Source of the DNA: Candidatus Nanopelagicales bacterium
GTDB taxonomy: Bacteria > Actinomycetota > Actinomycetes > S36-B12
Direction: 5' to 3'
Length of the DNA: 64,000 bases
NCBI GenBank assembly: GCA_017857705.1
Contig: JAFMCP010000002.1
Span: 7,506 to 71,505, forward strand
Below, piece by piece: positions 3,040 to 61,610 of the stretch (positions are counted from its first letter, which is position 1; each line of letters opens with the position of its first letter). The notes under the pieces are model-generated. The model did not search any database. It saw only the letters and a program-made list of their open reading frames with translations, and had not been told where the DNA came from. The translations under genes and the position numbers were made by a program.

Positions 3040-3704
3040 GATTGCTGCGCTCCAGACTTTGCAATTTTCAAACCAGCAAGCATTTTTTCGTCGACGCAAT
3101 TCCCAATAGTTGCGAGGTCATCTTCAGCCATCGCGAGCGTGTGCTCGGTTGCCTGGAAATCACGAATCATTGGTCCCCTGGTTGACCAAACTTCTTCACC
3201 AGCGGCAAGTTTGTCAATCACGTCAACGGCGCTTTGTGGGGTTACATCGTCCATGAATTCCCAGTCAACAGTCATGACCGGTGCATGGGTGCAGGCAGCT
3301 TGACATTCGATCCGCTCAAGCCAGAAGTTACCGTCGGCGGATGGACCGTTGTGAGTAGCGCCTAATCTCTCGGCAACACGCTCGTAAACAGCGTCACCTC
3401 CGAGAAGTCCACACAGAGTGTTGATGCACACACCGATGTGATGTTTTCCGACTGGACTGTGCTTGTACATGGTGTAGAACGTTGCTACCGCTGTTACTTC
3501 GGCTTGAGTGATCTCAAGTTCTTGCGCGCAAGCGGCAATGCCTTCTGTCGTTACTTCGTCTTGTTCTGCTTGTACCAAGTGCAACATGGGCAAGAGTGCA
3601 GAACGAGGATTCGGGTAACGCCCGGCCAGCTCCCGCATTTTGATGCGAGTTGATTCAGTTATCACGTTTGGCTCGTCTCTCTGGAACATTTTTTCCTGTG
3701 ACAT
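3036..3704 (-). CDS. nuoE: NADH-quinone oxidoreductase subunit E
   Basis: 222 aa. Cys pattern GVCINTLC...IECQAAC of the 24-kDa 2Fe-2S subunit. Sits between nuoD and nuoF. Confidence 0.9.
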   Translation of the reverse strand: MSQEKMFQRDEPNVITESTRIKMRELAGRYPNPRSALLPMLHLVQAEQDEVTTEGIAACAQELEITQAEVTAVATFYTMYKHSPVGKHHIGVCINTLCGLLGGDAVYERVAERLGATHNGPSADGNFWLERIECQAACTHAPVMTVDWEFMDDVTPQSAVDVIDKLAAGEEVWSTRGPMIRDFQATEHTLAMAEDDLATIGNCVDEKMLAGLKIAKSGAQQS

Positions 3705-5045
3705 TTATCGATCCACTCCGCCCATGACGGGGTCGATACTTGCAACCGCGGCGATCACGTCGGCGATCATGGAACCCTCGCTCATTGCCGCGACGGCTTG
3801 CAGGTTGTTGAAAGATGGATCCCGGAAGTGAACGCGGTACGGGCGAGTACCACCGGTGCTCACAACGTGTGCGCCAAGTTCACCTCGTGGCGATTCAATG
3901 GGGACATACGCCTGACCAGCAGGGACGCTGAAACCTTCGGTGACCAACTTGAAGTGGTGAATGAGCGCTTCCATGGACTCACTCATGATTTTTTGAATGT
4001 GCTCGGGCGAATTACCCTGCCCGTCACCGCCAATGGAAAGTTGTGATGGCCAAGCAATTTTCTTGTCCGCAATCATGATCGGACCTGGCACCAAACGGTC
4101 AAGGCACTGATCAACAATGTTGAGTGACTCGCGCATTTCGGCAATTCGATTGAGGAAACGGCCGTACGCGTCAGAAGTGGTTTGGGTGGGAACTTCAAAA
4201 TCATAGTTTTCATAGCCGCAATACGGCGCGCTCTTGCGAAGGTCATGTGGCAATCCGGTTGCTCGCAGTACCGGGCCCGTGATGCCGAGAGCCATGCAAC
4301 CGGTGAGGTCAAGGTACCCGACCCCAACGGTGCGTCCCATCCAGATCGCGTTGTCCACCAATAGATCGGAGGTGTCCTTCAACCGTTTGCGCAGCAGAAC
4401 AACTGTTTCTCTGATTTTTTCCTCAGCACCATTTGGCAAATCGATGGCCACTCCACCTGGTCGGATATAGGCGCTGTTCATGCGCAATCCGGAGACCATC
4501 TCGAAAATATCCAGGACAAGCTCGCGCTCGCGGAAACCGAAAATCATCGCGGTGAGAGCCCCAAGTTCCATACCACCGGTTGCAAGGGCAACTAAGTGCG
4601 AGGAAACGCGGTTCAGTTCCATCATCATTACTCGGATTACGTTGGCACGTTCGGGAATTTGATCCTCGATACCGAGTAGTCGCTCAACAGAAAGGCAGTA
4701 GGCCGTTTCATTAAACATCGGTGCCAGGTAATCCATGCGAGTTACGTAGGTGACACCTTGGACCCAGGTTCGAAACTCCATGTTCTTTTCGATTCCGGTA
4801 TGTAGGAAGCCAATTCCGCAACGAGCTTCGACAACCGTTTCACCTTCAAGTTCCAAAATCATGCGAAGCACACCGTGTGTGGATGGGTGCTGGGGTCCCA
4901 TGTTGACAACGATCCGCTCGTTCTCGCCCTCAGGTGCACCGACGATTGAATCCCAGTCGCCTCCGCCAAGGTTGTAAACGGTTCCTTCTGTTGTGTCGTA
5001 AGAACCCGAGAAAGGGTCCACGTTTGTAAAGTCGGTGGTAGTCAT
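3705..5045 (-). CDS. nuoD: NADH-quinone oxidoreductase subunit D (canonical 49-kDa subunit)
   Basis: 446 aa. Carries [16 protein letters not shown] and a C-terminal [11 protein letters not shown]. Lies in nuo operon order. Confidence 0.95.
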
Positions 5046-5737
5046 TAGTTGTACGACCTCCGGTGATCTGGTGAGGGGATACTCGCGCCTTTGTATTCAA
5101 CGGGGATGCCGCCCAGTGGATAGTCCTTACGTTGTGGATGCCCCACCCAGTCATCAGGCATTTGAATGCGCGTCAGCGCTGGGTGTCCATCAAAAATAAT
5201 TCCGAAAAAGTCCCACGTCTCGCGCTCATGCCAATCCGCGGACGGGTAAAGCCCGACAAGTGAGGGAATGTGGCGGTCGGAGTCGGGAATCGTTACTTCA
5301 ACTCGAATTCGACGATTATGGGTGAGCGAGAGCAAACTGTAAACAATGTGTAGTTCACGATCAGTTTCCTCAGGGAAATGAACTCCGCTGACGCTTGTAC
5401 ACATTTCGAATCGAAGTGCTGGCTCGTCCCTGCACTCGGTCATGAAAGCAATCAGGTTTTCGGGCTTAACAAAAAAAGTCATTTCGCCACGATCAATAAC
5501 AATCTTTTCAACTGCTCCGCTTACTCCGGCGTCGAGCAATGAAAGTGCAAGTTCTTCAGCGACTTCGTCGAACCATCCGCCGAAGGGTGGCAGTGACGCG
5601 CCCGGCATAACAATCGGCGAGACCAAACCACCGAAACCGCTTGTGTCACCCGATCCAGACGTACCAAATGCGCCCTTTCGGACACCTACGAGGTCAATTT
5701 CAGCGATGCCCTCGGGAACTACGGGAAGTTCGGTCAT
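5045..5737 (-). CDS. nuoC: NADH-quinone oxidoreductase subunit C
   Basis: 230 aa. 30-kDa subunit motif [16 protein letters not shown]. 1-nt overlap with nuoD. Confidence 0.9.
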
Positions 5738-6288
5738 CGAAGGAGCCCCTTCATTTCCAATACCGATGGTGCAGCCAGAGCAATTTGCTCGTGTTCGACT
5801 ATTTGTTTCTTACGATTGACGCCCAACTTCATGTCTTGGATTTCGTCATGGATTTTCAGGATTGCATCAATCAGCATTTCAGGCCTTGGTGGGCATCCGG
5901 GTAGGTATACATCGACGGGGACGACGTGGTCCACACCTTGAACGACGGCGTAGTTGTTGAACATTCCGCCACTTGATGAACACACACCCATGGCAAGCAC
6001 CCATTTGGGATTGGGCATTTGGTCATAGATTTGGCGAAGAACCGGTGCCATTTTTTGACTCACCCTGCCGGCAACAATCATGAGATCTGCTTGACGGGGT
6101 GATGCCCGGAAAACTTCCATTCCAAATCGGGCAATGTCATAACGCGGGCCACCCGTAGCCATCATTTCAATCGCGCAACATGCCAAACCGAAAGTGGCCG
6201 GCCATAGTGATCCTTTGCGTGCGTATCCGGCTACTTGTTCAACAGTGGTGAGCAGTATTCCCGAGGGCAACTTCTCTTCAAGACCCAT
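5734..6288 (-). CDS. nuoB: NADH-quinone oxidoreductase subunit B
   Basis: Carries [10 protein letters not shown] and GCPPRPE (cluster N2 ligands). I chose the start at MGLEEKL (TAATG overlap with the nuoA stop); the ORF track extends to 6318. Confidence 0.9.
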
Positions 6289-6647
6289 TAATCCCACTCC
6301 AATCCGCCGCGGCGCCACTCAAATGCATATGGCAAACATAAATTTATCAGGAAAAGGAAAATTGCGATCAGTCCAAATGCGCCAAGTGCATCGGCTGAAA
6401 CTGCCCAGGGGTAGAGGAAAACAAGTTCGATATCAAAAATGATGAACATCATGGCCGTGAGGTAGAACTTCACGGGGAAGCGTCCGCCACCCATGGGTTG
6501 TGGAGTTGGTTCGATTCCGCATTCGTAAGCAGCGTATTTCGCCCGGTTGTAGCGCTTTGGTCCAGTGAAACTGGCTATCACGATGGAAAAGACGGCAAAA
6601 CCGAAGGCCAAGATTCCGAGCACCAAAATCGGTGTGTAGACGTTCAC
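6288..6647 (-). CDS. nuoA: NADH-quinone oxidoreductase subunit A
   Basis: 119 aa, three hydrophobic segments, YECGIEP motif, GTG start. First gene of the nuo operon. Confidence 0.9.
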
Positions 6648-6752: not shown

Positions 6753-7451
6753 TTAATCCTTAGGAGCGACCGCCCGGTGGATACTCACGATTCCACCGGT
6801 GAAATTACGCCACCGGACCCCGTGCCAACCAGCTTCAGCAATGTCAGTTGCCAATTCCCTTTGAGTAGGCCAAGCACGGATTGATTCCGCCAAGTACCGA
6901 TATGCGTCAGGATTTGATGAGACTCGATCTGAAAGTACGGGCAACGCAGCCATCAAGTACTCCGTGTACACCTTTCGCAGGGGTGTAAACGTGGGATGGG
7001 AAAACTCACAGATCACGACCAACCCGCCGGGCTTAGTGACTCGCAGAAATTCTTTCAGGGCCACCATTCGATCAGCGACATTACGCAGTCCAAAAGATAT
7101 CGTGATCCGGTCAAACGTTGAATCGGGAAACGGCAGCGCTAGAGCGTCTGCCGCGACAAAGGGAATCGTGGGATTTCGGTCTTTTCCAACTTCAAGCATT
7201 CCCAATGAAAAATCCGCAGCAATGACTTTTGCGCCAGTGGCGGTAAAGGCCGCAGTAGATGTTCCTGTGCCAGCGGCTATGTCAAGAACTAGTTGCCCCG
7301 GTTCCAGCTCCAAGGCTTTTCGAACCTCGCTACGCCAACGACGGGTTTGCCCCAGAGCCAATATGTCGTTAGTCACGTCGTATTTGGCGGCTACCGCGTC
7401 AAACATCGCCGCAACTTCGGCTGGGTCCTTATCCAAATTCGCCCTAGGCAC
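6753..7451 (-). CDS. menG: Demethylmenaquinone methyltransferase (UbiE/MenG family)
   Basis: 232 aa. SAM-binding VLDIAAGTG plus the UbiE-type FGLRNV motif. Lies within the men gene neighbourhood. Confidence 0.9.
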
Positions 7452-7534
7452 TCGCTTAGTCTGTCAGAGATCACGCTAAGTGCGAACTTCAGTTCCAAGT
7501 GGTCGAATTAACCGGCTGGCCCTAGGCTCCACGA

Positions 7535-8788
7535 ATGAGCGCGATTGAGCAGTCGGGTGCTTTGCCCGATCAGGAACACTTAACGTTTCGTACCCGCGCA
7601 CTTGATCATGACGTCGAACTTTTACGGCATTTGCCCGTTGAGAAGCCTCTGGCTTGGGTTCGTGGCGGTGAGGGGCTCATCGGTTGGGGGGTCGCCGCCA
7701 GGTTACAAGTTCGTGGAGACGAAACCTTCTCACGCACGCAACGCTGGTGGAATCGACTTCTCACCAATGCTCATATTGAGGACACCGTGAGCCTGCCCGG
7801 TACGGGCCCCGTCGCCTTCGCTTCATTTGCATTCGACCTTAACAATCTCTCCGAAGTTGTGGTACCCAGTGTCGTTATCGGTAAGCGTGGCGGCCAAACG
7901 TGGATGACAACAATTGGCTCAGCAAGCACCGCCCTACCTCCCGTTTCAGTTCCTGTCGGACCTTCCGCGGTCCGCTGGGCGGAGGGCAGCGTTCAGCCAT
8001 GGGAGTGGGAGCAGTGCGTTGCGACTGCCGTAAATCGGATCACGGCCGGTGAACTCGACAAAGTGGTCCTCGCGCGTGATTTGATTGCCCACATTGATGG
8101 GACCCTCGATGTTCGCTTTCTCGTCAACGCTTTAGCAAATGCCTATCCCACGTGCTGGACATTTGTCGTGGAAGATCTTTTTGGAGCCACTCCTGAATTA
8201 CTCGTTCGACGAACCGGTGGACTAGTAACAAGTCGGGTCTTGGCAGGAACGGTGAGGCGTCAAGGGGACAAAGGAACTGATGCAGACTTGGCTTCTGATC
8301 TCATGAGGAGTCAAAAAGACTTAGCGGAGCACGCGTATGCGGTCAATTCCGTCGCAAAAGCGTTAGCAACCCACTGCACTGACCTCGACGTTCCCGAGCA
8401 GCCACGCGTTCTCGAGCTGGCGAACGTTCAACACCTCGCAACCGATGTCACGGGTCAACTTGCAGACGAGGCACCTATCTTGTCCCTCGTGGCATCGCTG
8501 CATCCAACGGCCGCGGTGTGTGGAACTCCGACTGAACGTGCCAAAGTGGTAATCGCCGAGTTGGAAGGAATGAACCGTGGGCGTTATGCCGGTCCAGTTG
8601 GTTGGTTTGATCAACGCGGTGACGGTGAATTTGGGATTGCACTTCGATGCGCCAAAATTGACCAGGGAGCTAATACAGTCCGATCATTTGCTGGATGCGG
8701 AATCGTTGCTGGGTCAATCCCCGAACTCGAGCTTGCCGAGTCAGCAGCGAAACTTGCCCCAGTGCGTGATGCGCTCGAAAGCGGTTAG
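7535..8788 (+). CDS. menF: Isochorismate synthase
   Basis: 417 aa. Chorismate-binding C-terminus: HPTAAVCGTP, GRYAGPVGW, GEFGIALRCA. Confidence 0.85.
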   Translation: MSAIEQSGALPDQEHLTFRTRALDHDVELLRHLPVEKPLAWVRGGEGLIGWGVAARLQVRGDETFSRTQRWWNRLLTNAHIEDTVSLPGTGPVAFASFAFDLNNLSEVVVPSVVIGKRGGQTWMTTIGSASTALPPVSVPVGPSAVRWAEGSVQPWEWEQCVATAVNRITAGELDKVVLARDLIAHIDGTLDVRFLVNALANAYPTCWTFVVEDLFGATPELLVRRTGGLVTSRVLAGTVRRQGDKGTDADLASDLMRSQKDLAEHAYAVNSVAKALATHCTDLDVPEQPRVLELANVQHLATDVTGQLADEAPILSLVASLHPTAAVCGTPTERAKVVIAELEGMNRGRYAGPVGWFDQRGDGEFGIALRCAKIDQGANTVRSFAGCGIVAGSIPELELAESAAKLAPVRDALESG

Positions 8789-10437
8789 TGTGACATCACC
8801 TTTTCAAATGCAATAATCCCCGGCCCAAATTCCGGCGCGGGTACCTGATTCCAATTTTGGTTGAGCAACATTTTGCGCATGATAGCATTGTCATTGAGTA
8901 CGTAAGCTACTAATTTGGTGTAGCCCAACCTAGCCGCCAAATCCTGAGAATGTTCAAGCAAGATTTTCCCGATTCCTTGACCCTGATATTGGTCTTCTAC
9001 CAGGTAGGCAATTTCCCCAGTGTGCAAGTCTGTGGCGGAAAGCGGGAAAACGTTTGCTAAAGCCATTAATTGGTTATCTCGGTCGGTAACTACAAGAGTT
9101 ATACCCCTGTGCCCGCCACTCACCCGGCGTAGATTCTCTTCGCGCCACGTATTCTTCGGAGTAAAATATCGCTGATAAATGGATTTCTCTGATGATCTTT
9201 TGTGAAGTTGTTCAACCGCCAACGTGTCTTCGGGGCGTGCCAATCGAACCAACACTGGATTATTGTTTGTCAATTCTTCAACCCACCCGAATTCACTCGT
9301 TACCCCACTTGCTGTGATTAGGGCTTCGACCAATTCGAGTAATGCCGAAGCGCGTTGATACTCAACTTGGGTAAATGGTGCGGCTTGCCTACGCAAAATC
9401 ACATGGTGATCCAATGTCCATTGAAGCCGAAGGACATGTTCCGAGGAATTCTCCCCGCTTGTCGCCTCGACTACCTCCCAAGATTGAGCAAGCACTAGAT
9501 CCGCTGCCGCCTGAGGGGCAAATGCGGGAGTAGTTGCCAGAACACTGCTGAGCCTGAGAACTCGAGTTGCAACATCAATGGCATCATTTTCATTTCCGTT
9601 GGCGACAATGACGTCTTTGCCCACTGAGTCAATGGCCTGTCGAAGCGTCGCTCGGTCCATGTTCTGCGGAGCTTTGATGATGGCGTCAATCTGTTGATCC
9701 TCGCTAGGCAAATCAATCGAAGTTAATTGAACGACAGCAACGTTGAGTAACGACAGCACACGGAGAAGTCTGGCCGTAGCACTGGGTTTGCCTTCGAGAG
9801 TCGTTCGCACTCGCCAAAAGTTTGGTAGATCACCCGGATGAGGAATTACCGGGTCCGTTACTGCCAAAGACTCAAGTAGTCGAGCGCTCAATGCGTTCCA
9901 ATGAGCCTCGCTGACACTCACAGGTAACACCGGAGCCAACATTGCAATGCCGATGCCTACGGCAATGATATGCAGGACTACCGAGTCAATATCCACTGTT
10001 GGATCAATGAGGCCGTGCTCCCGCATTTTGAGCACTATTGCACGGGATTTCATCCAGCGATGCTCAATCCGCTTCGCTAGGACCTCGCGCAATTCCGGAT
10101 CAAAAGGAGCACCCGCCAAAGCTGCGAGTTCGATCGAATCCCATGCGCTAGCCGGGTCTCCCCAAACATCGCGTGAAGCCGATAGCAATAAATGCAGGGC
10201 GTGATTCTCACTTGAATCTAGATTTACATCAAAACTTTTTGTGACGGATGAATAGGGCAAAGAGGAAATCACGAGTCGCAGAAATTCCGAACGATTCTTT
10301 GCAACTGACGTTACCGTGCCTGCCGAATAGCCGGAAGTCTCTGCAATTTCACGCCGTGAAATATTAAGAACACCGAGAGTAACGTACAGATCGGTTGCAG
10401 CGCGAAGAATTTTCTGTCGCGTTGAATCTGCGACCAC
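8785..10437 (-). CDS. Multidomain protein: N-terminal TetR-like HTH, ~300-aa uncharacterised central region, C-terminal Pat-like GNAT acetyltransferase
   Basis: GTG start 5 nt after the menD stop. N-terminus KILRAATDLYVTLG...ISRREIAETSGYSAGTV resembles a TetR HTH. C-terminus has SIYQRYF and QYQGQGIGKILLEH (acetyl-CoA site, Q/RxxGxG/A) and resembles the GNAT domain of bacterial protein lysine acetyltransferases. Confidence 0.7.
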   Translation of the reverse strand: MVADSTRQKILRAATDLYVTLGVLNISRREIAETSGYSAGTVTSVAKNRSEFLRLVISSLPYSSVTKSFDVNLDSSENHALHLLLSASRDVWGDPASAWDSIELAALAGAPFDPELREVLAKRIEHRWMKSRAIVLKMREHGLIDPTVDIDSVVLHIIAVGIGIAMLAPVLPVSVSEAHWNALSARLLESLAVTDPVIPHPGDLPNFWRVRTTLEGKPSATARLLRVLSLLNVAVVQLTSIDLPSEDQQIDAIIKAPQNMDRATLRQAIDSVGKDVIVANGNENDAIDVATRVLRLSSVLATTPAFAPQAAADLVLAQSWEVVEATSGENSSEHVLRLQWTLDHHVILRRQAAPFTQVEYQRASALLELVEALITASGVTSEFGWVEELTNNNPVLVRLARPEDTLAVEQLHKRSSEKSIYQRYFTPKNTWREENLRRVSGGHRGITLVVTDRDNQLMALANVFPLSATDLHTGEIAYLVEDQYQGQGIGKILLEHSQDLAARLGYTKLVAYVLNDNAIMRKMLLNQNWNQVPAPEFGPGIIAFEKVMSH

Positions 10438-10442
10438 AGGTC

Positions 10443-12182
10443 TCAGCCCCCCGAAAGTGCTTCATGCACTGCCTGTGCAATGTGCACAAGAATTTCACTC
10501 TCCCGAACTCGGTCAACGCTCGTGGCGGTTATTACATGCAAGCCACCGTCAATCGCCGTGTCGAGCGCCTCGGCCAATTCGTCTTCGCTCGTGACGGTTA
10601 CGGCATTGGCCCGGAGCGAGGTGGCGACAAGGGTCGGATCAATATCGAGTGGCACTCCAAAGACCTGATCAAAATATTTCGCATATTGCGGTGCACCTTG
10701 CTCCAAATTTGAAAAAATTCCCCCACCGTTGTTGTCAATGACAACAATCACAAGATTAATTTTTCCTTCAGTTGGTGGGATTAAAAGAGCATTGGTGTCG
10801 TAGAGGAAAGACTGGTCACCAACTAAAGCGACTACGCATCCATCACCTTCGACCGTTGCGCTGATCGCTACCCCGGTCGCAGTGGAAACGCAGCCGTCAA
10901 TCCCGGAAACTCCCCTATTTCCTAAAATGGCCGAATCGGTAACACTGGTAGCCGCAAATGAAGCGACATGTCTAACCGCTGACGAGGCTCCCAGGAAAAG
11001 AGTTCCGGCTTCAGGCAATAGCTGAGTTACAACTCGAGCTATCTGCATCCCGGTGAGTTCTTCAGGATTGAGTACCGTCTCAATCGCGGCCGCAGCCAAA
11101 ATATCGGCCCGTTGCCACTCCTCCAACCATTCACCGTCAACTTCACACTCTTCCGGTGGAAGGGGGACAGCAGCAATGACTAGGTCTGCGCTACGAGTTG
11201 GGTCGGCGAAATGCGCATGGCTATCAACCGCAATGTGGATCCCGGCCGACTCGATGAGCTTTAGCACACCTCGAGACAAACCTACTTTTCCAATTGTGAG
11301 TACCAATTCAGGAATGTGTGTTTCGCGAAATGAAGAATCCGACGCAAGTAAGTGACCATGTGAGAGGGTCAGATCAGCCCGACTCAGGTTGGCACTGGGT
11401 TCAGCGATTATTGGCCAACCGATTACGTCACTGAGTTCGTCAATCATGTCAATGAAGTCCGTGTCGTTGTGGTCCCCAACCACGATCAATCCACGCGCGG
11501 GCACAACGCCGTCTTCGTCAAGAAAAGTCATTATTTCATCAAGGGGTGAACTCACGGCGGCAAGTAACCGGGCATCGGCAACCCAAGGACGTCCGTCAGG
11601 GCGACCGTCCAAATCTTCACTCCACATGTCGTCGGATTCACCCACCAGTGGGGCGGCGAAGGGGATATTGAGATGGACTGGGCCAGGACTCACAGAGTCG
11701 GTTGCAATCCCAACAGCGCGTGAGATTTCTGAGCGCCAGTACTTCACTTGACCCTCTGCCGTTGTTGCGGTTGCAAGATCAACGCTGGATCGAACATGTG
11801 GTCCGAATATTGCCATCTGCGAAATGGTTTGATTTGCACCAATCCCACGCAATTGCGGGGGTCGATCGGCGGTCAAGAGCAGCATGGGTACGTAGGAGTG
11901 ATCGGCTTCGATAACCGCAGGGAGCAAATTAGCAACTGCGCTCCCAGATGTTGTTACGACCGCAGCTGGTATTCCTGTTGCCTTACCCAAACCCAATGCA
12001 ACAAATGCGGCAACTCTCTCATCAAGGCGCACATGTAATCGAAGTTCGAGTCGAGCATGCGCTCCCGCAAGTTCCAATGCGAGGGGCGCACTGCGAGAGC
12101 CGGGGGAAAGTACAACGTCTGTGATACCGCATCGAATGAGTTCGTCGACCATCACTTTGGCTTGGGCGACCGATGGCTCCAT
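10443..12182 (-). CDS. menD: SEPHCHC synthase (2-succinyl-5-enolpyruvyl-6-hydroxy-3-cyclohexene-1-carboxylate synthase)
   Basis: 579 aa. ThDP enzyme motifs GSRSAPL and GDQSFLYDTNAL. Sits in men context. Confidence 0.9.
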   Translation of the reverse strand: MEPSVAQAKVMVDELIRCGITDVVLSPGSRSAPLALELAGAHARLELRLHVRLDERVAAFVALGLGKATGIPAAVVTTSGSAVANLLPAVIEADHSYVPMLLLTADRPPQLRGIGANQTISQMAIFGPHVRSSVDLATATTAEGQVKYWRSEISRAVGIATDSVSPGPVHLNIPFAAPLVGESDDMWSEDLDGRPDGRPWVADARLLAAVSSPLDEIMTFLDEDGVVPARGLIVVGDHNDTDFIDMIDELSDVIGWPIIAEPSANLSRADLTLSHGHLLASDSSFRETHIPELVLTIGKVGLSRGVLKLIESAGIHIAVDSHAHFADPTRSADLVIAAVPLPPEECEVDGEWLEEWQRADILAAAAIETVLNPEELTGMQIARVVTQLLPEAGTLFLGASSAVRHVASFAATSVTDSAILGNRGVSGIDGCVSTATGVAISATVEGDGCVVALVGDQSFLYDTNALLIPPTEGKINLVIVVIDNNGGGIFSNLEQGAPQYAKYFDQVFGVPLDIDPTLVATSLRANAVTVTSEDELAEALDTAIDGGLHVITATSVDRVRESEILVHIAQAVHEALSGG

Positions 12183-47020: not shown

Positions 47021-47867
47021 TCAGGTTAACTTTCCCGATTGGCATATTGTCAATTAAGCGAGTCGAACCGAGGTGACCGGCAAACAGCAACCGCCCCTCA
47101 GTTGCATTTTCAGTTGCATCCAGTTCACGGGAAAGATCATTTGTCATAGCAACTAAATACGAAGGTTCAACCTCCCTTGATAGCGCCAACCTAGCTGCAC
47201 TCAATTTTGCTTCGCTATTTCCTTCTGTCCTTTGCGCGGCAAAGAGTGCGCGTGAAATAGAAACGGCTTGAATCCGTTGTTCGGGGCTAAGGAAAGCATT
47301 TCGGGAACTCATAGCTAATCCATCAGGCTCGCGACGTGTCTGCACCCCGATGACCTTAACGGGGAAATTTAGTTGTTGCACCATCTGTGAAATTAACACT
47401 AATTGTTGGTAGTCCTTCTCGCCGAAAGTAGCGAACCTTGGTTGAACAAGGTTGAGAAGTTTTGCAACAATAGTAAGTACACCAGCAAAATGTCCGGGAC
47501 GGTCCGCACCTTCGAGTACCGTCCCCAGCGACCCTGGTTGGACACTGATTCCTTGACTGGATTCACTACCGTCGGGATACATTTCATTGACACTGGGGGC
47601 AAACACAATGTCGACTCCGTTGGCCTCGCATTGTGCAAGATCACTTTCAAGTGTTCTCGGGTATTGCGATACTTCGGATGCATGTCCAAACTGGGTCGGA
47701 TTCACAAAAATGGACATGACAACTTCACCATCAGTGCCGACAAGCGTCCGTGCAGCGTCAACGAGGTCAAGATGGCCTTGATGCAATGCGCCCATGGTTG
47801 GGATAAAGGCCCGGTCAACACCCGTTTTTTTTTCAAGTTCCTTGCTGTCGTGGATCAACTTTGTCAT
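47013..47867 (-). CDS. panC: Pantoate-beta-alanine ligase
   Basis: 284 aa. PTMGALHQGHLDL (HIGH-like) motif. Confidence 0.95.
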   Translation of the reverse strand: MTKLIHDSKELEKKTGVDRAFIPTMGALHQGHLDLVDAARTLVGTDGEVVMSIFVNPTQFGHASEVSQYPRTLESDLAQCEANGVDIVFAPSVNEMYPDGSESSQGISVQPGSLGTVLEGADRPGHFAGVLTIVAKLLNLVQPRFATFGEKDYQQLVLISQMVQQLNFPVKVIGVQTRREPDGLAMSSRNAFLSPEQRIQAVSISRALFAAQRTEGNSEAKLSAARLALSREVEPSYLVAMTNDLSRELDATENATEGRLLFAGHLGSTRLIDNMPIGKVNLSE

Positions 47868-48733
47868 GTGCCCTCACCCAATTCGATCAGAAGATCAGCG
47901 GCCTGATCAACAGAGAGTAGACCCGCAGCGAGTGCTCTATCAGTTGACAGTCGGGCGAGAGCCCGATAAGCATTTTGGGCACTTGGGCGCTCCTGTAGTG
48001 CTTCGAGGTGTTTGCGAATCACTTCGCGGTCCCCCCGAGCAACTGGACCAGTGAGGCCCTTATCCCCCAAACGCAGTGCATTATCAAGTGAGGCACTGAG
48101 GAGTGGTGCCAGCAATCGCTTCGGACTTTCCATACCTGACTGCGTCAGAAGCGAAACGGCTTCATTCACCAGCACGTTGAGATAGTTAGCACTCATTACC
48201 ATCGCGGTGTGGTACATCACTCGCGACTCTTCAGGGACCCAAACCGGCTCACCACCCATTTCAACCACCAGTGCTTCAGCTACGGGTCGAAGTGTTTGCG
48301 TGGTGGTGACTCCAAATGGCGTGTCCGGCAGCCGGGCCAGGTCAACACTGGTCCCGGTAAATGTCATGACCGGGTGAATCGCCATGGGTGAGACTTGTGG
48401 GGCCGAATCAAAAACTGAGATCCCGTAATTCCCGGAGGTGTGTACGACAAACTGTCCAGGGACAAATACTTCGCTCGAGGAAAAACCGCGAATGAGGTCA
48501 GGCAGAACACTGTCTGGCACCGCCAGAATTACCAGTTCGGATTCCGCTACCACTTGATCGGCGGCCCTAATTGGTACACCTGGAAGGAGTGCTTCGGCGC
48601 GAAGTCGGGATAAGTCTGAGACCGCACTCACGCCTATGCAGTTATGGCCGGATAGGCGAAGGGCCGCACCTAGGACAGCGCCAACGCGCCCTGCTCCGAC
48701 CACCCCAAAACGCAAACGAGGAGGGGCGTCCAT
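47864..48733 (-). CDS. Rossmann-fold NAD(P)-binding protein (DUF2520-type), upstream partner of panC
   Basis: 289 aa. FGVVGAGRVGAVLG dinucleotide motif. Conserved position upstream of panC in Actinobacteria (from memory). Confidence 0.7.
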   Translation of the reverse strand: MDAPPRLRFGVVGAGRVGAVLGAALRLSGHNCIGVSAVSDLSRLRAEALLPGVPIRAADQVVAESELVILAVPDSVLPDLIRGFSSSEVFVPGQFVVHTSGNYGISVFDSAPQVSPMAIHPVMTFTGTSVDLARLPDTPFGVTTTQTLRPVAEALVVEMGGEPVWVPEESRVMYHTAMVMSANYLNVLVNEAVSLLTQSGMESPKRLLAPLLSASLDNALRLGDKGLTGPVARGDREVIRKHLEALQERPSAQNAYRALARLSTDRALAAGLLSVDQAADLLIELGEGT

Positions 48734-48767
48734 GTCGAAAGCCTAGAGGTGACTAACGTCGTCTTCC

Positions 48768-49634
48768 ATGTCCCCATACATTCCGTGGATTGATGCTTGG
48801 GAGTCAGCAGCTTTCGGTCCAGTTGGCTTTTATGGCGAGTTTGGATCTAAAGGAGGGAAACCCTATGAGCATTTTCGTACGGCTGTTGTATCAAATCCGG
48901 ATTTGGCAGCAGAATTGTTTCCATATCTGCTCGAAACTTACAAGCAATGCGGCTCACCTGCGCAATTCTTAGTTCTCGATGTCGGTGGATCCAATGGCTC
49001 ACTCATAAGCAAACTGCAACCATTCATTCATGAAAATGGACTCAACTGGAAAACCCAGATCTTTGATGTATCGAGTGGAGATGCGAGAAGAATCCCGATT
49101 CGTGAAAAGTACGGTGTAGTTATTGCCCATGAACTCTTGGACGATATTCCCACCACCGTTGTTGAATACGACGAGGACCTCCTCCCTCGCATGGTCCTTG
49201 TCGACCCGATTAGCGGTCATGAGCAGCTAGGTGAATCCGTTTCACAAATGGAATTGGAATGGCTAATGCGGTGGTGGCCACAGACCGTGCCTCATGCTCG
49301 CCGCGAAATCGGAATCACTAGAGATCACACTTGGGTTAAATTAGTTGAAATCTTCAGCATGGGTCGAGCAATCGGTATTGATTACTCGCATTCATTGAAC
49401 CAACGGGTCAGTGGATTCTTTGATGCCGGAACCCTTACCGGATATCGACTTGGTGAGTCTGTTCGAGCGATTCCCAATGGCGAAATTAACCTTACCGCTC
49501 ATGTGGCCTTAGATTCCTGCGCAAGTGCCGCAATAGCATCACGTCCGGATATCACGGCCACTTTGATCAAGGAAGTCGATTCTGATCACAATGATTTCCG
49601 GTGGCTCGTGCAGGACTTTGGATCTCGATCATGA
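48768..49634 (+). CDS. MidA/NDUFAF7-like SAM-dependent methyltransferase (DUF185 family)
   Basis: 288 aa. FYGEF...HFRTAV, LVLDVGGSNGSL (SAM glycine loop), GVVIAHELLDDIPTTVVEY and GRAIGIDYSH match my memory of the MidA/COG1565 pattern (GYY..DF.TAP, ElGaG.G.L, aNE..DAlPv, iDYG). Confidence 0.65.
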   Translation: MSPYIPWIDAWESAAFGPVGFYGEFGSKGGKPYEHFRTAVVSNPDLAAELFPYLLETYKQCGSPAQFLVLDVGGSNGSLISKLQPFIHENGLNWKTQIFDVSSGDARRIPIREKYGVVIAHELLDDIPTTVVEYDEDLLPRMVLVDPISGHEQLGESVSQMELEWLMRWWPQTVPHARREIGITRDHTWVKLVEIFSMGRAIGIDYSHSLNQRVSGFFDAGTLTGYRLGESVRAIPNGEINLTAHVALDSCASAAIASRPDITATLIKEVDSDHNDFRWLVQDFGSRS

Positions 49635-49646
49635 AACGATGCGCGC

Positions 49647-50732
49647 ATGCGTAGTGTGGTCGCCGGCATTGGCCTGGCTCCCGGTGAGATCAAAATTGAT
49701 CTAGGTGAGTTTCACCCGAGTGCTCAAGGAGGTTTTCAACTGCACCTGACCATCGATGACGACGTGATCACCAGTGTTGAGCCCCGAATTGGCTTTATGC
49801 ACCGTGGAGCCGAAAAACTTTTCGAGGTACGCGACTACCGGCAAATCATGATGCTGGCTAACCGTCACGACTGGTACGCGCCGTTTACATCCGAACTCGG
49901 GGTGGCCCTGACTCTTGAATCTGCGATGGGAATCCATCCTCCGGAGCGCGCCACCTGGATTCGCATGCTGCTCGCCGAATTCACCCGTATTTCAGCACTA
50001 ATTGCGTTCTTACCAACAACGAAAACTCAGCAACTCCGCAACCAAATAGCCAACCTATTCGAGTCGATCACTGGTAATCGGGTACACCCAATGTACGCGC
50101 GCATTGGCGGAGTTGCTCACGATATTCCTAAAGACACCTCCCAGCAAAGTCACTTGATTATTTGTGAATTTCAGGAGGTTCTCCCCACTTTCATTGAAAA
50201 CCTGAATCGAAGTGAACTGCACGGATTGGCGGTGCTGTCCACCGCTGATTCGATTTCATTTGGCGCCAGTGGACCTGTGGCATGGGCCAGCGGGCTTCAC
50301 AACGATCTCCGATTCGACACTGATTACCTGAGATACAAAGAATTAGGTGTCGCCAAGCCAGAGGTCTACAGCGATGGGGATGCATACTCTCGCTTTCTAG
50401 CCTTAATTGATCAAGTCACACTGAGCACTACTTTGATTGAAGAAATATTGTCACAACTTGAAAGAACACATGGTTCGGATGTCAACGTGGTGCTCCCCAA
50501 GGTTGTACGCGCACCAGAAGGAAACTCTTATACCTGGGTTGACGGGCCAACAGGAATTAATGGCTGGTATTTGGTAAGTGCCGGGGAGAAAACTCCATGG
50601 CGGCTAAAATTGCGGTCTGCTTCATTTAATAATTTCCAGGCACTTGTTCCCACACTGGTAGGCCACCGCCTAGATCAACTGCCGAATGCACTCAGCAGTA
50701 TGTTTTTAGTTATTGGTGACTTGGATCGTTAG
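49647..50732 (+). CDS. Orphan NuoD / 49-kDa-subunit-like paralogue (shortened, quinone-site residues substituted)
   Basis: 361 aa. Aligns by eye along its whole length with the canonical NuoD at 3705-5045: HPSAQGGF versus [18 protein letters not shown] versus [14 protein letters not shown] versus RMDY, SASFNNFQAL versus [10 protein letters not shown], and a C-terminal GDLDR versus GGVDR. Confidence 0.8.
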   Translation: MRSVVAGIGLAPGEIKIDLGEFHPSAQGGFQLHLTIDDDVITSVEPRIGFMHRGAEKLFEVRDYRQIMMLANRHDWYAPFTSELGVALTLESAMGIHPPERATWIRMLLAEFTRISALIAFLPTTKTQQLRNQIANLFESITGNRVHPMYARIGGVAHDIPKDTSQQSHLIICEFQEVLPTFIENLNRSELHGLAVLSTADSISFGASGPVAWASGLHNDLRFDTDYLRYKELGVAKPEVYSDGDAYSRFLALIDQVTLSTTLIEEILSQLERTHGSDVNVVLPKVVRAPEGNSYTWVDGPTGINGWYLVSAGEKTPWRLKLRSASFNNFQALVPTLVGHRLDQLPNALSSMFLVIGDLDR

Positions 50733-51006
50733 CCCGAATATAGGTAGCGAATCGAGCTCGCAGCAGTGTTTCCATATCGGGATCGATTTCGCCGTGACCA
50801 AACATTTGTTTTGCGGCTCGTACGGTTTCAATAAATGTCCCGCCAATTGAACCGAGATCTCCACCCTCGCCCTCAATCGCGATCATTCCTGGCATGTGCG
50901 AGAAAACGTCGGTGAAGAAACCGATATCCAGTTTCTTTTCTGCAAGATGAAAGGCCTGATGTCGCAGATCGTCGAAGGGCAAGTCTTCAAGCGTGGGTTC
51001 ACTCAT
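50710..51006 (-). CDS. Hypothetical acidic protein
   Basis: 98 aa ORF. Its 3' end overlaps the NuoD-like gene's 3' end convergently by 23 nt. No recognisable family. Confidence 0.45.
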   Translation of the reverse strand: MSEPTLEDLPFDDLRHQAFHLAEKKLDIGFFTDVFSHMPGMIAIEGEGGDLGSIGGTFIETVRAAKQMFGHGEIDPDMETLLRARFATYIRANDPSHQ

Positions 51007-51024
51007 GGGAGCAGAGTACTTTGA

Positions 51025-51486
51025 TCACTTATCTGAGGTTGTGCCCTGGTCTCTAGCGACGCACAGGCTTTCCAGCCACAGCGACGAAATAACGAGCAGC
51101 ACCCCACCCAATGCAGCTAGGAAGCTATTCAGGGTGGCGCTCCAGCCGGCCGGGGTATCAAAACTGCTCATTGAGGTAAGCGACACCCCAGCATAGAAAC
51201 CGGCGATGACAGCTCCGGTTCTGCTCCCCGCAAGCGCCAACACCGCAATCCGAGCCGCAGCTAATGGCGGGAAAGGTCTTGCTCCGGGCTCCCGTTTAAG
51301 GCGCGGCCTTGCGAAATAGGTCCAGATCCCGAATCCAGCGCCCAGAATCCACAACGCACCGGCAGCCATGGCCGGAACGGGGAGGGATCGTGAACTTTGA
51401 CCCATGACAATTTGAGTGAACGCAAATCCAATTGCCATCGCAATCAAGGCGAAGACTACGAGTCGAGAGATCTTTGTGGTTTGCAT
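51025..51486 (-). CDS. DUF3180-like four-TM membrane protein
   Basis: 153 aa, four hydrophobic helices. Conserved position directly downstream of folK in Actinobacteria. 1-nt overlap with folK. Confidence 0.7.
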   Translation of the reverse strand: MQTTKISRLVVFALIAMAIGFAFTQIVMGQSSRSLPVPAMAAGALWILGAGFGIWTYFARPRLKREPGARPFPPLAAARIAVLALAGSRTGAVIAGFYAGVSLTSMSSFDTPAGWSATLNSFLAALGGVLLVISSLWLESLCVARDQGTTSDK

Positions 51487-51992
51487 TATCCTTCCAGCCC
51501 AATCTCAAGTTGTTCAATTTCTTGCATCGATGACCACAATTTGTTAACCGGACCTTCCCCAGGAAGTTCCATGAACTGGGCGTTCACATTCATCGCTGCC
51601 CACGGCGCGGTAACGAATACCCGCTCCCACGCGCGCGGATGCGGGAGAGTCAGGATTGGGTCTGCACTTATTACAGGGACTCCATTTTCCCAGAGAGCAA
51701 TGACGTCTAGGTCCAAAGTCCTTGGCCCCCAACGGACTTCACGGGTCCTAGATTGAGCATTCTCCACTTCATGAAGTTTGTTAAGAATTTCACGCCCTGA
51801 CAGTTTGGTGTCGAAAAGAGCCACAGCATTAATAAAATCGTCCTGCTCGACTCCACCGACCGGCTTACTCCGATAGAGATTCGAACTTGCGATGGGTGTC
51901 CACACGCGGGAAAGTTCCTGGTAGGCAACTCTCACCGATTCAACAGGGTCACCCAGATTCGCACCGAAAGCAACGAGAACAGTGTTTGTCAT
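51486..51992 (-). CDS. folK: 2-Amino-4-hydroxy-6-hydroxymethyldihydropteridine diphosphokinase
   Basis: 168 aa. VAFGANLGD, GPRTLDLDV and PHPR motifs. Confidence 0.9.
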   Translation of the reverse strand: MTNTVLVAFGANLGDPVESVRVAYQELSRVWTPIASSNLYRSKPVGGVEQDDFINAVALFDTKLSGREILNKLHEVENAQSRTREVRWGPRTLDLDVIALWENGVPVISADPILTLPHPRAWERVFVTAPWAAMNVNAQFMELPGEGPVNKLWSSMQEIEQLEIGLEG

Positions 51993-53173
51993 GAGTCGAC
52001 AAATTTGGCTCGAGTGACAATCACGTCACCGAACTCACCCTCAATTGGTGCATCCGGCTTATGAACTCGGATCTTGGCAAAAACTACTTGGGGAAAGGCA
52101 AGGCAATCGGTGGCAATCAGTTCGGCAAGTTTTTCAATTAGGTCTACTGGTTCTCCAGAAATTCGCGCGCGGATTGAATCCGCCACTTCAGCGTAATTTA
52201 CGGTGTCAGCAAGATTGTCTGTGTGGGCAGCATGTGAAATTGAAAGCCCCAAGGTTGCATCGACACTGAAATATTGGCCGTTTATCCGTTCGTGTTCGAG
52301 TACGCCATGACGGCCAAATTCACGTAGCCCCAGTAACTCAATTGAGTCAATTGGGGGATTTGGATTGATCGCGCACAAGGCTTTATAAGCATCACTGGTT
52401 GCCTGGACGTCATGGACTCGAACACCCCATGCTCCGCGTTGCAGAAGATAAGCGGATGTGGTCGCAGATGCGACTTCACGGATACCCACGTCTCGTGGTT
52501 TTCCTTCGTCGTCTGATAGCAGAGTTCCCAGGAATCTCTTACGTGATACTCCCACAAGTAACGGGTGACCGCCTGCAAGGAGAGCATCGAGATTTCTCAA
52601 TAGTTCCCAGTTGTGCTCAGAGTCTTTGCCAAAACCAATGCCGGGATCCAAAATGATGTTGCCTCGCTGGATTCCTGCACCCAGTGCTGCCTTTGCTCGA
52701 TCCTGTAATTCTGAACAAACTTCAGCAACGGCACTGTCGTAATGAGTATTCTCTTGCATCGTCTTGCTCGGCCCACGCCAATGCATCAGCACAATCGGAA
52801 CCCCTAGACGTGCAACGACAGTAAACATCTGTGGATCTGCGAGACCGCCACTTACGTCATTCACCATTCGTGCACCCACGGCAATGGCAGCTTCTGCGAC
52901 CTCAGAGCGCATAGTGTCAATGCTGACGTAGATACCCTGTGCGCAGATTTGCTCTACAACGGGAATAACTCGTGCCAGTTCAGTTTCTAGCGAAATTCTT
53001 TCGGCTCCAGGACGAGTGGACTCTCCCCCAATATCAATGATGCTCGCCCCATTAGCCACCATTGAGGTCGCGGCTTCAACAGCTGACTTCACTGAATCAA
53101 ATTGGCCACCATCGGAAAATGAGTCCGGTGTCAAATTTAAGATCCCCATAATGACCGGGGCATGGACAAGCAT
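51989..53173 (-). CDS. Fused dihydropteroate synthase / dihydroneopterin aldolase
   Basis: 394 aa. N-terminal ~270 aa are DHPS (GILNLTPDSFSDGG, IIDIGGESTRPG, VRVHDV). C-terminal ~120 aa are FolB (IELLGLREFGRHGVLEHERINGQYFSVD). Confidence 0.85.
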   Translation of the reverse strand: MLVHAPVIMGILNLTPDSFSDGGQFDSVKSAVEAATSMVANGASIIDIGGESTRPGAERISLETELARVIPVVEQICAQGIYVSIDTMRSEVAEAAIAVGARMVNDVSGGLADPQMFTVVARLGVPIVLMHWRGPSKTMQENTHYDSAVAEVCSELQDRAKAALGAGIQRGNIILDPGIGFGKDSEHNWELLRNLDALLAGGHPLLVGVSRKRFLGTLLSDDEGKPRDVGIREVASATTSAYLLQRGAWGVRVHDVQATSDAYKALCAINPNPPIDSIELLGLREFGRHGVLEHERINGQYFSVDATLGLSISHAAHTDNLADTVNYAEVADSIRARISGEPVDLIEKLAELIATDCLAFPQVVFAKIRVHKPDAPIEGEFGDVIVTRAKFVDS

Positions 53174-60274: not shown

Positions 60275-60344
60275 GGACCTTCGACTCTAAAAATCCCATC
60301 TCTTGGCACGGCTACTCCACGATTTTTTTCCCTACCGTGGAGAC

Positions 60345-61610
60345 ATGAAAAAACTCCTTGTTCTCGGCGGAGGCACCGCCGGCACCATGTCCGCGAATCG
60401 CCTGGCTCACCTGCTCAAAGACTGGAAGGTCACCGTAATTGACCGCGATGACAACCACCGTTACCAACCCGGATTTTTGTTCATGCCATTTGGCACTTAT
60501 TCCCCCGATCAAATCACCCGCTCGCGCCGTGAAACTCTCAACAAAAGAGTTGACCTAGTACTGGGTGAAATCGATCGTATCGATGGAGACTCAAACAAAG
60601 TCTTCTTGGTTAATGGCACCGAATTCGATTATGACTACTTGATCATTGCAACCGGGGTTTCTCCCCGCGCCGACCAAACGGATGGGCTAGCCGAGGGTAT
60701 TTCTTCTAATGATGCCGTGCACGAGTTCTACAGTTATGAGGGCTCACAAGCTCTCGCTGAAAAATTGAAGCGATTTGAAGGTGGAAAAGTTGTTATCAAT
60801 ATTGTTGAGATGCCGATCAAGTGTCCTGTCGCTCCGCTTGAATTCGCCTTCCTAGCCGACGATTTCTTTAAATCACGCGGAATCCGTGACAAGGTCACCA
60901 TGACGTACGCGACACCACTTGGCGCTGCCTTCACCCAACCGATTGCCGCTCAGGCGTTCGGAGCAACCTTGGAAGAGAAATCAATTTCTGTTGAGCCAGA
61001 TTTCATGCTCATGGAGGTTGACAACGACGCCAACGAGATCATTTCATTTGATGAGCGCCGGATTCCCTTTGACCTCCTGGTCAGCATCCCGGTCAACATG
61101 GGGCAAGATTTCCTCTCAGCCTCAGGGCTCGGTAATGAATTAAATCTCGTTCCCGTTGACAAATTTACCCAGCTTTCTAACAAGTATTCGAATGTATTCG
61201 CCCTCGGTGACGCGAACAATATTCCCGCTTCCAAGGCCGGATCGGTTGCCCACTTTGAAGTAGATATTTTTATAGACAATTTCATAGAACATATTGCTGG
61301 AAAAGAAATGACCCACCGCTTTGATGGCCACGCCAACTGTTTTATTGAAACAGGTGGAGGTAAAGCAATGTTGATTGACTTCAATTACAACGTAGAGCCA
61401 CTCCCCGGTAGGTACCCCTACCCAATTGTTGGGCCCATGAGTCTATTGAAGAAAACTCGGATGAATCACATGGGAAAAATGGCGTTTCGGTGGGTGTACT
61501 GGAACATCTTGATGCCAGGTCGTCAAATGCCTGTCCCCGCTCACATGAGTCTTAGTGGAAAACACACCGAAATGCTCGACGACACCAAACTCGCAAAAGC
61601 TGCACTCTAA
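60345..61610 (+). CDS. FAD-dependent sulfide:quinone oxidoreductase-like flavoprotein
   Basis: I chose the start at MKKLLVLGGGTAGT (GGAG SD 4-7 nt upstream). Dinucleotide fold. Cysteines in IKCPVAPLEF and HANCFIETGG lie in contexts that resemble the redox cysteines of SQR-family enzymes. Confidence 0.7.
   Translation: MKKLLVLGGGTAGTMSANRLAHLLKDWKVTVIDRDDNHRYQPGFLFMPFGTYSPDQITRSRRETLNKRVDLVLGEIDRIDGDSNKVFLVNGTEFDYDYLIIATGVSPRADQTDGLAEGISSNDAVHEFYSYEGSQALAEKLKRFEGGKVVINIVEMPIKCPVAPLEFAFLADDFFKSRGIRDKVTMTYATPLGAAFTQPIAAQAFGATLEEKSISVEPDFMLMEVDNDANEIISFDERRIPFDLLVSIPVNMGQDFLSASGLGNELNLVPVDKFTQLSNKYSNVFALGDANNIPASKAGSVAHFEVDIFIDNFIEHIAGKEMTHRFDGHANCFIETGGGKAMLIDFNYNVEPLPGRYPYPIVGPMSLLKKTRMNHMGKMAFRWVYWNILMPGRQMPVPAHMSLSGKHTEMLDDTKLAKAAL

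Follow-up and report, generated by a model that had tools for sequence, protein, structure and literature searches.

A MidA/NDUFAF7-family methyltransferase gene linked to an orphan NuoD paralogue in Actinobacteria: a candidate arginine-modification module

Do a methyltransferase gene and the gene for an orphan NuoD-like protein at its side encode an enzyme and its dedicated substrate? The question is raised by a 64-kb stretch of DNA from a Candidatus Nanopelagicales bacterium (contig JAFMCP010000002.1; hereafter the window), in which the two genes lie far from the nuo operon of the canonical complex I. The mitochondrial enzyme NDUFAF7 dimethylates Arg85 of the complex I subunit NDUFS2 (PMC3829151), and the equivalent arginine is symmetrically dimethylated in Nqo4 of Paracoccus denitrificans (PMC3750175). 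For prokaryotic MidA proteins, function has so far been inferred only in silico, according to a paper of 2025 (PMC12455994). An earlier note on this DNA had proposed, from the sequence alone, that the MidA-like enzyme of the window acts on the adjacent paralogue, here called NuoD2, and not on the NuoD encoded in the operon. Taking into account family profiles, structure models, residue conservation, gene linkage and co-evolution, we consider it moderately probable that the two genes constitute a dedicated module of modifier and substrate in which the enzyme would methylate Arg53 of NuoD2.

The two proteins and the candidate target arginine

The first gene of the pair encodes a compact MidA/NDUFAF7-family methyltransferase dependent on S-adenosylmethionine (SAM), an assignment on which Pfam, profile search and Foldseek agree. 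The protein scores 39.8 bits with Pfam PF02636 (Methyltransf_28, MidA), for which the cut-off is 23.3; its match is confined to profile positions 91-237 of 249, that is, the C-terminal two thirds. The same family is hit by 25/25 aligned homologues (best E 6.7e-22), and no NCBIfam model matched. When the profile of this 25-homologue alignment was compared with the PDB, it retrieved the COG1565 protein of B. thailandensis (4f3n, 2e-20), the DUF185 protein of R. palustris (1zkd, 4e-14) and a Dictyostelium 'protein arginine methyltransferase NDUFAF7 homolog' (5ztz, 2e-11), with SAM motif I, the (A/N)E..D..P, DYG and TAHV blocks and GTLTGY aligned to all three. Profile and fold searches were required for this result, as a single-sequence phmmer search against the PDB yielded a chance match only. 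The AlphaFold2 model of the enzyme (predicted local distance difference test, pLDDT, 90.9; predicted TM-score, pTM, 0.90) found 4g67, 4f3n, 1zkd and 5ztz/5zu0, all of them MidA/COG1565 structures, at Foldseek ranks 1-6 (E 2.5e-14 to 9e-12; query TM-score, TMq, 0.61-0.78). Generic SAM methyltransferases appear further down, with E 5e-5 at best, a difference of about eight orders of magnitude. Seven residues (E122, D125, P128, D205, Y206, T243 and H245) are invariant in the 25 sequences.

NuoD2 is a member of the complex I 49-kDa family. It matches Pfam PF00346 (Complex1_49kDa) with E 8.7e-42, and its AlphaFold2 model (pLDDT 84.4) superimposes on NDUFS2, Nqo4 and NuoD chains with TMq 0.78-0.84. 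Both family assignments of the earlier note are thus borne out. NuoD2 misses the NCBIfam cut-offs for NuoD equivalogs by a wide distance (232.3 bits vs 360 for NF004739; 218.5 vs 522 for NF008974), and its identity with the canonical NuoD of the window amounts to 26%. Its Streptomyces paralogues (in loci L001, L024 and others) are 39-42% identical to it, occupy the same pan-fol locus and have the HRGAEK...ANRHDW residues in common with it. The annotated Streptomyces nuoD2 (SCO3392) presumably belongs to this family; nothing was found in the literature on SCO3391 or SCO3392.

Streptomyces-type NuoD2 proteins align end to end with the short NuoD model NF008974 (366 amino acids, aa) and with the FpoD model NF040602 (372 aa), and NuoD2 therefore has the short-form architecture typical of 11-subunit relatives of complex I. 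A segment of about 41 residues present in NuoD of the 14-subunit type is missing from all NuoD2 members. The idea that this gap relative to the canonical NuoD is a new deletion was rejected because of the end-to-end match to the short models. Also rejected was an origin of NuoD2 by recent duplication of an actinobacterial NuoD, as mitochondrial, Thermus and cyanobacterial chains of the PDB score higher (269-278 bits) than NuoD of M. smegmatis (252 bits).

Over residues 15-117, NuoD2 aligns with NDUFS2 in HMMER without a gap, which places IGFMHRGAEK opposite IGLLHRGTEK and Arg53 opposite Arg85 (numbered on the 430-aa mature chain), as had been read by eye before. The conservation of this arginine was followed in three sets of NuoD2 sequences, namely 117 full-length homologues with at least 45% identity, 79 paralogues from reference genomes, and, from the top 150 representatives of clusters at 50% identity, the about 90 NuoD2-type ones that were readable at the relevant positions. 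Arg53 is invariant in all of them (117/117, 79/79 and every readable representative), so that its conservation among orthologues, expected in the earlier note, is borne out. In the monomer model residues 51-55 have pLDDT values below 50, which suggests that the predicted loop around Arg53 is flexible.

The by-eye alignment had been anchored on a quinone-site tyrosine 23 residues downstream of the arginine. This anchor holds for the canonical NuoD (Thr83, Tyr106) and fails for the paralogue, in which Trp76 stands in that column, a change that had been overlooked. Trp76 is invariant in all three sets as part of the family signature ANRHDW, even where its neighbours drift (RHEW, RHAW, RHNW, RHIW), whereas canonical NuoDs have R.DY. 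The adjacent Tyr77 of the window protein is not conserved. Taken together, the core of the family reads HRGAEKLFExRDYRQ...ANRHDW. At the column of the quinone-site histidine, occupied by Gln27 in the window, close homologues have Q (58), H (50) or N (7) and reference-genome paralogues mostly H (75/79), and the position is variable in divergent members. An acidic loop of 11 residues is deleted in the clade of the window only and kept in Streptomyces-type NuoD2; the deletion includes the acidic quinone-site residue, equivalent to bovine Asp160. Because the tyrosine is lost family-wide, and the histidine and the acidic loop in the window clade as well, NuoD2 is no working quinone-reducing subunit. 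With RHDW kept, the pocket residues as read from the alignments are remodelled and not decayed.

The canonical NuoD of the window carries threonine (Thr83) at the position of NDUFS2 Arg85, as the earlier note had said, and so do NuoD of M. smegmatis and Nqo4 of T. thermophilus. For Thermus an 'intersubunit residue switch' has been described, in which Arg83 of Nqo6 (NuoB) occupies the space of the missing NuoD arginine (PMC8042128). HMMER alignments place Arg at the switch position of NuoB in the window, in M. smegmatis and in T. thermophilus Nqo6, and Thr in Yarrowia NUKM. Judged by these residues, the canonical complex I of the window is of the Thermus/Mycobacterium type (NuoD-Thr, NuoB-Arg). 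An enzyme with threonine in NuoD and a compensating arginine in NuoB offers no MidA target and needs no MidA, which strengthens the earlier argument that the canonical NuoD is not the substrate. NuoD2 is also an unlikely stand-in for the canonical NuoD, since its binding to the canonical NuoB would be expected to bring two arginines into one site.

Linkage and co-evolution across Actinobacteria

Linkage of the two genes was scored in a scan that admitted one genome per species. Relatives of the methyltransferase were present in at least 563 genomes, and each scan covered the best-scoring 80 loci, a sample rich in Streptomyces. The best 80 methyltransferase loci span Nanopelagicales, Streptomyces, Streptosporangiales, Frankiaceae, metagenome-assembled genomes (MAGs) of Mycobacteriales, and Actinocrinis. 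In 78 of these 80 reference-genome loci the distance from the methyltransferase gene to a NuoD2 gene is at most 10 kb; the other two are on contigs that end too early to be scored. NuoD2 is likewise near the methyltransferase in loci L001, L002 and L174, and it is found 2 kb away from the most divergent methyltransferase detected (P0232). Among 83 loci selected for NuoD2, the methyltransferase is present in 61 and absent from 5, while 17 are too short upstream to be scored, giving 61/66 scorable loci. For six very divergent NuoD2 lineages the corresponding figure is one. A methyltransferase without NuoD2 was never seen in scorable loci, which include that of the most divergent member and the relocated locus L017. 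The asymmetry, with the methyltransferase never found without NuoD2 and NuoD2 sometimes found without the methyltransferase, is the pattern to be expected of a dedicated modifier and its substrate.

The arrangement of the pair varies. In compact genomes the genes are adjacent and co-directional, with 6-134 nucleotides (nt) between the tblastn alignments; in Streptomyces they are adjacent and often convergent; and in Streptosporangiales they are 3-8 kb apart, with other genes between them. The pair is divergent in L076, and in L017 it has moved away from panC. Linkage thus outlasts inversions, convergent and divergent orientation, gene insertions of 2-8 kb, and relocation away from panC (L017, L076). 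The pair is an old and widespread actinobacterial module of the panC-DUF2520/folK locus and not an insertion. Co-conservation of the two genes across Actinobacteria is therefore well founded within the best-scoring loci, and the flanks named in the earlier note, panC-DUF2520 on one side and folK/DUF3180 on the other, were recovered. Its description of the pair as inserted relative to mycobacterial synteny is misleading, because the same locus is held in many actinobacterial orders; absence from some mycobacteria would accordingly be a loss. The pair is presumably absent from M. tuberculosis. The GC content is uniform along the window (0.49-0.56) and thus gives no hint of a recent insertion.

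Rates of change of the two proteins covary. Among 97 non-redundant loci that contain the methyltransferase, NuoD2, panC and DUF2520 genes, pairwise distances derived from tblastn segments are correlated most strongly, out of six gene pairs, between the methyltransferase and NuoD2 (r = 0.91). After controlling for panC and DUF2520 the partial r of this pair is 0.78, a value not attained in any of 500 permutations, whereas the other pairs range from -0.16 to 0.41. In subsets the partial r of the pair stays at 0.73-0.78, unchanged when the window clade is left out and 0.73 inside the main cluster. This covariation exceeds what shared phylogeny would give, and it supports a functional or physical link between the two proteins.

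Layout and neighbourhood of the locus

The pair resides on one strand, 43.7 kb from the end of the canonical nuoD, with a 12-nt spacer between the two open reading frames (ORFs), in agreement with the earlier description of the locus. Read directly from the sequence, both ORFs are in the same reading frame of the plus strand. A terminator scan found no terminator-like site in the spacer, and the pair is probably co-transcribed. Promoter and terminator predictions in 48400-51200 did not exceed the counts obtained with shuffled sequence, and no Rfam family was detected in 47500-52000. For both proteins, the best matches come from Candidatus Nanopelagicales MAGs. Coordinates are collected in Table 1.

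Table 1. Features of the window, with positions counted from its first nucleotide
Feature	Position	Strand	Remarks
MidA-family methyltransferase ORF	48768-49634	+	288 aa
Motif I, LDVGGSNGS	48975-49001	+	methyltransferase
AHELLDDIP	49125-49151	+	methyltransferase, (A/N)E..D..P block
DYSH	49380-49391	+	methyltransferase, DYG block
GTLTGY	49428-49445	+	methyltransferase
LTAHV	49491-49505	+	methyltransferase, TAHV block
Spacer AACGATGCGCGC	49635-49646	+	12 nt, from methyltransferase TGA stop to NuoD2 ATG
NuoD2 ORF	49647-50732	+	orphan short-form NuoD paralogue, 361 aa
Gln27 codon of NuoD2	49725-49727	+	column of quinone-site His (bovine His59); His lost in window clade
Arg53 codon of NuoD2	49803-49805	+	equivalent of NDUFS2 Arg85, the residue dimethylated by NDUFAF7; predicted methylation site
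Trp76 codon of NuoD2	49872-49874	+	column of quinone-binding Tyr (bovine Tyr108, T. thermophilus Tyr87)
Acidic ORF	50710-51006	-	98 aa, convergent with NuoD2
folP-folB fusion	51989-53173	-	394 aa; Pterin_bind residues 9-254, folB residues 278-387
Pyr_redox_2 protein gene	60303-61610	+	435 aa
Canonical nuoB-C-D-E-F	1738-6318	-	nuo operon
Canonical NuoB	5734-6318	-	Arg85 at 'intersubunit switch' position
Arg85 codon of canonical NuoB	6064-6066	-	
Canonical NuoD	3705-5045	-	Pfam PF00346 E 1.6e-109; NCBIfam NuoD 571 bits, above cut-off; His57, Thr83, Tyr106
Thr83 codon of canonical NuoD	4797-4799	-	takes the place of the N2-proximal Arg
UbiE/MenG-type methyltransferase gene	6753-7451		menaquinone gene
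Chorismate-binding enzyme gene	7535-8788		menaquinone gene
MenD-like thiamine pyrophosphate enzyme gene	10443-12182		menaquinone gene

Upstream of the pair, on the minus strand, are coaX, nadC, nadB, panC and the DUF2520 gene; downstream, likewise on the minus strand, follow a 98-aa ORF, DUF3180, folK, a folP-folB fusion, folE and ftsH. The 98-aa ORF overlaps the 3' end of the NuoD2 gene by 23 nt. No credible Pfam or NCBIfam family was found for it or its homologues, which tblastn located between NuoD2 and DUF3180 in many loci (e.g. L004-L007, L009, L014 and L084). As they keep the same position, we regard this ORF as a real, conserved, unnamed small gene. The folP and folB genes are separate in most related loci, and a folB-folK fusion occurs instead in L171 and L174. 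Over all loci, no neighbour of NuoD2 is more constant than the folK/DUF3180 block. In L173 (4311-5863) NuoD2 is the last gene of a one-strand run folE-folP-folB-folK-DUF3180-NuoD2, its start overlapping the stop of DUF3180, and no MidA gene is present. Larger genomes have two bPH_2 (PF03703) genes, of about 165 and 470 aa, located between or beside the methyltransferase and NuoD2 genes (L002, 8747-10659; L001, 10217-12143; L166, 7772-10095; L174, 8436-10403). This bPH_2 pair is accessory, as homologues occur in 42/166 loci and in none of the compact ones.

Across 166 loci (2.56 Mb), no NuoA-, NuoB- or NuoC-like gene was detected up to 10 kb away from the pair, nor a second nuo set within the window. 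The sole nuo-like neighbour in these 166 loci is a NuoF-like gene in L166 (974-2056, minus strand), 8 kb upstream of a NuoD2 gene without methyltransferase, whose product is 30% identical to NuoF of the window over 377 residues. Three menaquinone genes next to the nuo operon of the window (6753-12182) fit a menaquinone-dependent respiratory chain. A Pyr_redox_2 protein encoded further downstream is possibly a type II NADH dehydrogenase and would in that case provide a second route of NADH oxidation.

Interpretation and comparison with known systems

Based on these data, we propose that the MidA-type enzyme transfers methyl to the guanidino group of NuoD2 Arg53, which lies in the presumably flexible HRGAEK loop. 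The reaction would mirror the action of NDUFAF7 on NDUFS2 Arg85. With its degenerate quinone site, NuoD2 is a non-catalytic NuoD-like protein and not a spare catalytic subunit, and the most likely role of the methylated form would be in a docking or assembly step that depends on methylation and involves a protein like NuoB. An 11-subunit complex I lineage is the probable source of the module. Methylation would be a modulating layer on an intrinsic role of the arginine, as in the contrast of E. coli with Paracoccus.

Several observations weigh against the proposed module. E. coli NuoCD keeps the arginine in unmethylated form (PMC3750175). Nearby methyltransferase genes are lacking in at least five divergent NuoD2 lineages (L167, L168/169, L171, L172 and L173) and also around typical NuoD2 genes in L166 and perhaps in L122 and L144, yet all of these keep Arg and Trp. 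The conservation of the arginine therefore has causes besides methylation, and NuoD2 can work in the absence of the methyltransferase; this is the main evidence against a strict dependence of the substrate on the enzyme. DNA methylation has been reported for MidA of Wolbachia (PMC12455994), for which reason the substrates of MidA may be broader than thought. In addition, synteny of the pan-fol block is strong throughout Actinobacteria, so that inherited position explains part of the co-localization, and the linkage counts are drawn from the best-scoring 80 of at least 563 loci, in which Streptomyces is over-represented.

If Arg53 is indeed methylated, it may be asked whether NuoD2 acts on its own or within a second complex. 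Tentatively, we picture it as a free-standing, non-catalytic protein that is switched by its dedicated arginine methyltransferase independently of a second Nuo complex, for example as a chaperone or checkpoint that serves a NuoB-type iron-sulfur subunit and is gated by methylation, or as a sensor derived from the former, now remodelled quinone/NiFe pocket with its invariant RHDW. Rather unlikely, in our estimate, is that NuoD2 serves as the structural D subunit of a second, 11-subunit-type complex encoded elsewhere ('Nuo2' of Streptomyces, comprising A2, B2 and H2-N2), with the MidA-like enzyme as its assembly factor; methylation of Arg53 would occur in this case, too. Two papers list the orphan nuoD2 of Streptomyces apart from the nuo2 operon (A2, B2, H2-N2), as a separated member of that set (PMC3765725, PMC8388888). 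The NDUFAF7 gene of Candidatus Actinomarina stands immediately behind an 11-subunit nuo operon, in an organism that has a 14-subunit enzyme as well (bioRxiv 10.1101/2021.02.01.429150). The end-to-end match of NuoD2 to the short NuoD and FpoD models agrees with such a role, and an arginine-bearing NuoD2 would suit a NuoB2 that lacks the switch arginine. These points have to be set against the absence of NuoA-, NuoB- and NuoC-like genes around the pair in the 166 loci and of a second nuo set from the window. Moreover, a protein with tryptophan for the catalytic tyrosine throughout the family, without the histidine in many lineages and without the acidic loop in the window clade, fits quinone reduction poorly, and the pair is retained in Nanopelagicales-type genomes that, going by the best matches, appear streamlined.

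It is improbable that adjacency reflects mainly the inherited synteny of a stable pan-fol block, with another protein or a nucleic acid as the substrate of the methyltransferase and NuoD2 as an unrelated relic. The conservation of panC, DUF2520, folK and DUF3180 at the same loci, the variable orientation and spacing of a pair that often is not one operon, the occurrence of NuoD2 without the methyltransferase, and the activity reported for the Wolbachia enzyme would all be accommodated by this explanation. It does not account for a partial correlation far above that of either protein with panC or DUF2520, for a methyltransferase that keeps NuoD2 in every scorable locus, even in its most divergent member and after relocation in L017, or for the fact that the sole characterized substrate of the enzyme family is a NuoD homologue modified at the very arginine that NuoD2 keeps invariant. 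Least probable is that NuoD2 is a partner without being a substrate, either as an adaptor or regulatory pseudo-subunit that directs the methyltransferase specifically to a third protein or as a protein whose former quinone pocket binds a folate-linked small molecule: strong co-evolution would suit any stable complex, NuoD2 closes the fol gene run of L173 and has folK/DUF3180 as its most constant neighbour, and its pocket is remodelled with RHDW invariant, but a NuoD-like adaptor is without precedent, NuoD2 is convergent with the fol genes in loci other than L173, and its invariant arginine stands within the known target motif of MidA.

A dedicated pair of methyltransferase and NuoD2 would have consequences beyond this locus. 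The role of the dimethyl-arginine beside cluster N2 of complex I is difficult to study, since without NDUFAF7 the assembly of an essential enzyme of 45 subunits collapses. If the proposal is true, a two-gene module in tractable Streptomyces provides a simple system for MidA substrate recognition and for the effect of methylation on the NuoD fold. With a free-standing, methylation-switched NuoD2, Gram-positive bacteria would have their first described system dedicated to protein-arginine methylation. The data also suggest that a second complex I lineage, of the 11-subunit type, survives in Actinobacteria as a relic accompanied by its assembly factor. Since the catalytic tyrosine is missing family-wide, the public label 'NADH-quinone oxidoreductase subunit D' is misleading for NuoD2, and this mislabelling affects metabolic reconstructions of abundant freshwater Actinobacteria.

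The earlier note knew of no characterized bacterial pair of MidA and a NuoD paralogue. A literature search found no paper on the pairing, on the invariant Arg/Trp signature or on co-evolution, and in this respect the statement holds; parts of the picture, namely the orphan nuoD2 (PMC3765725, PMC8388888) and the NDUFAF7 gene of Actinomarina (bioRxiv 10.1101/2021.02.01.429150), were already in print. In the passages of the Streptomyces papers that deal with nuoD2, it is treated only as a spare nuo gene, with the methyltransferase neighbour, the Tyr-to-Trp change and the invariant arginine unmentioned (PMC3765725, PMC8388888). The window version is, furthermore, more reduced than NuoD2 of Streptomyces, with the histidine changed to Gln and the acidic loop deleted. 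Candidatus Actinomarina resembles the window organism in combining a 14-subunit complex I with a MidA-family gene linked to a second nuoD (bioRxiv 10.1101/2021.02.01.429150). There, however, nuoD is part of a complete 11-subunit operon, whereas here the D gene stands alone with the methyltransferase gene at an unrelated locus.

The residue switch between Nqo4-Thr and Nqo6-Arg83 of Thermus (PMC8042128) finds its counterpart in Thr83 of NuoD and Arg85 of NuoB in the window, as in M. smegmatis. It bears on the canonical enzyme and not on the gene pair, and it accounts both for the canonical NuoD being no MidA substrate and for the expected clash of NuoD2 with NuoB. Nqo4 of Paracoccus (PMC3750175) is the precedent for a bacterial NuoD protein that is methylated at the equivalent arginine. 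In that case the target is a catalytic, operon-encoded subunit of a proteobacterium, whereas the candidate described here is a degenerate second copy from Actinobacteria whose gene is physically linked to that of the enzyme. The system of NDUFAF7 and NDUFS2 (PMC3829151, PMC3750175) differs in that the window enzyme, with 288 aa, is about 70-110 residues shorter than the proteins of solved structure (357-401 aa) and 12-17% identical to them, in that its partner, for which methylation is predicted, is an orphan paralogue outside the nuo operon and without the quinone tyrosine, and in that the canonical NuoD of the window organism has threonine and cannot be the target. Common to both are an enzyme of the same family by Pfam, profile and fold, a partner with the 49-kDa/NuoD fold, and the arginine of the HRGxEK motif, which is kept invariant.

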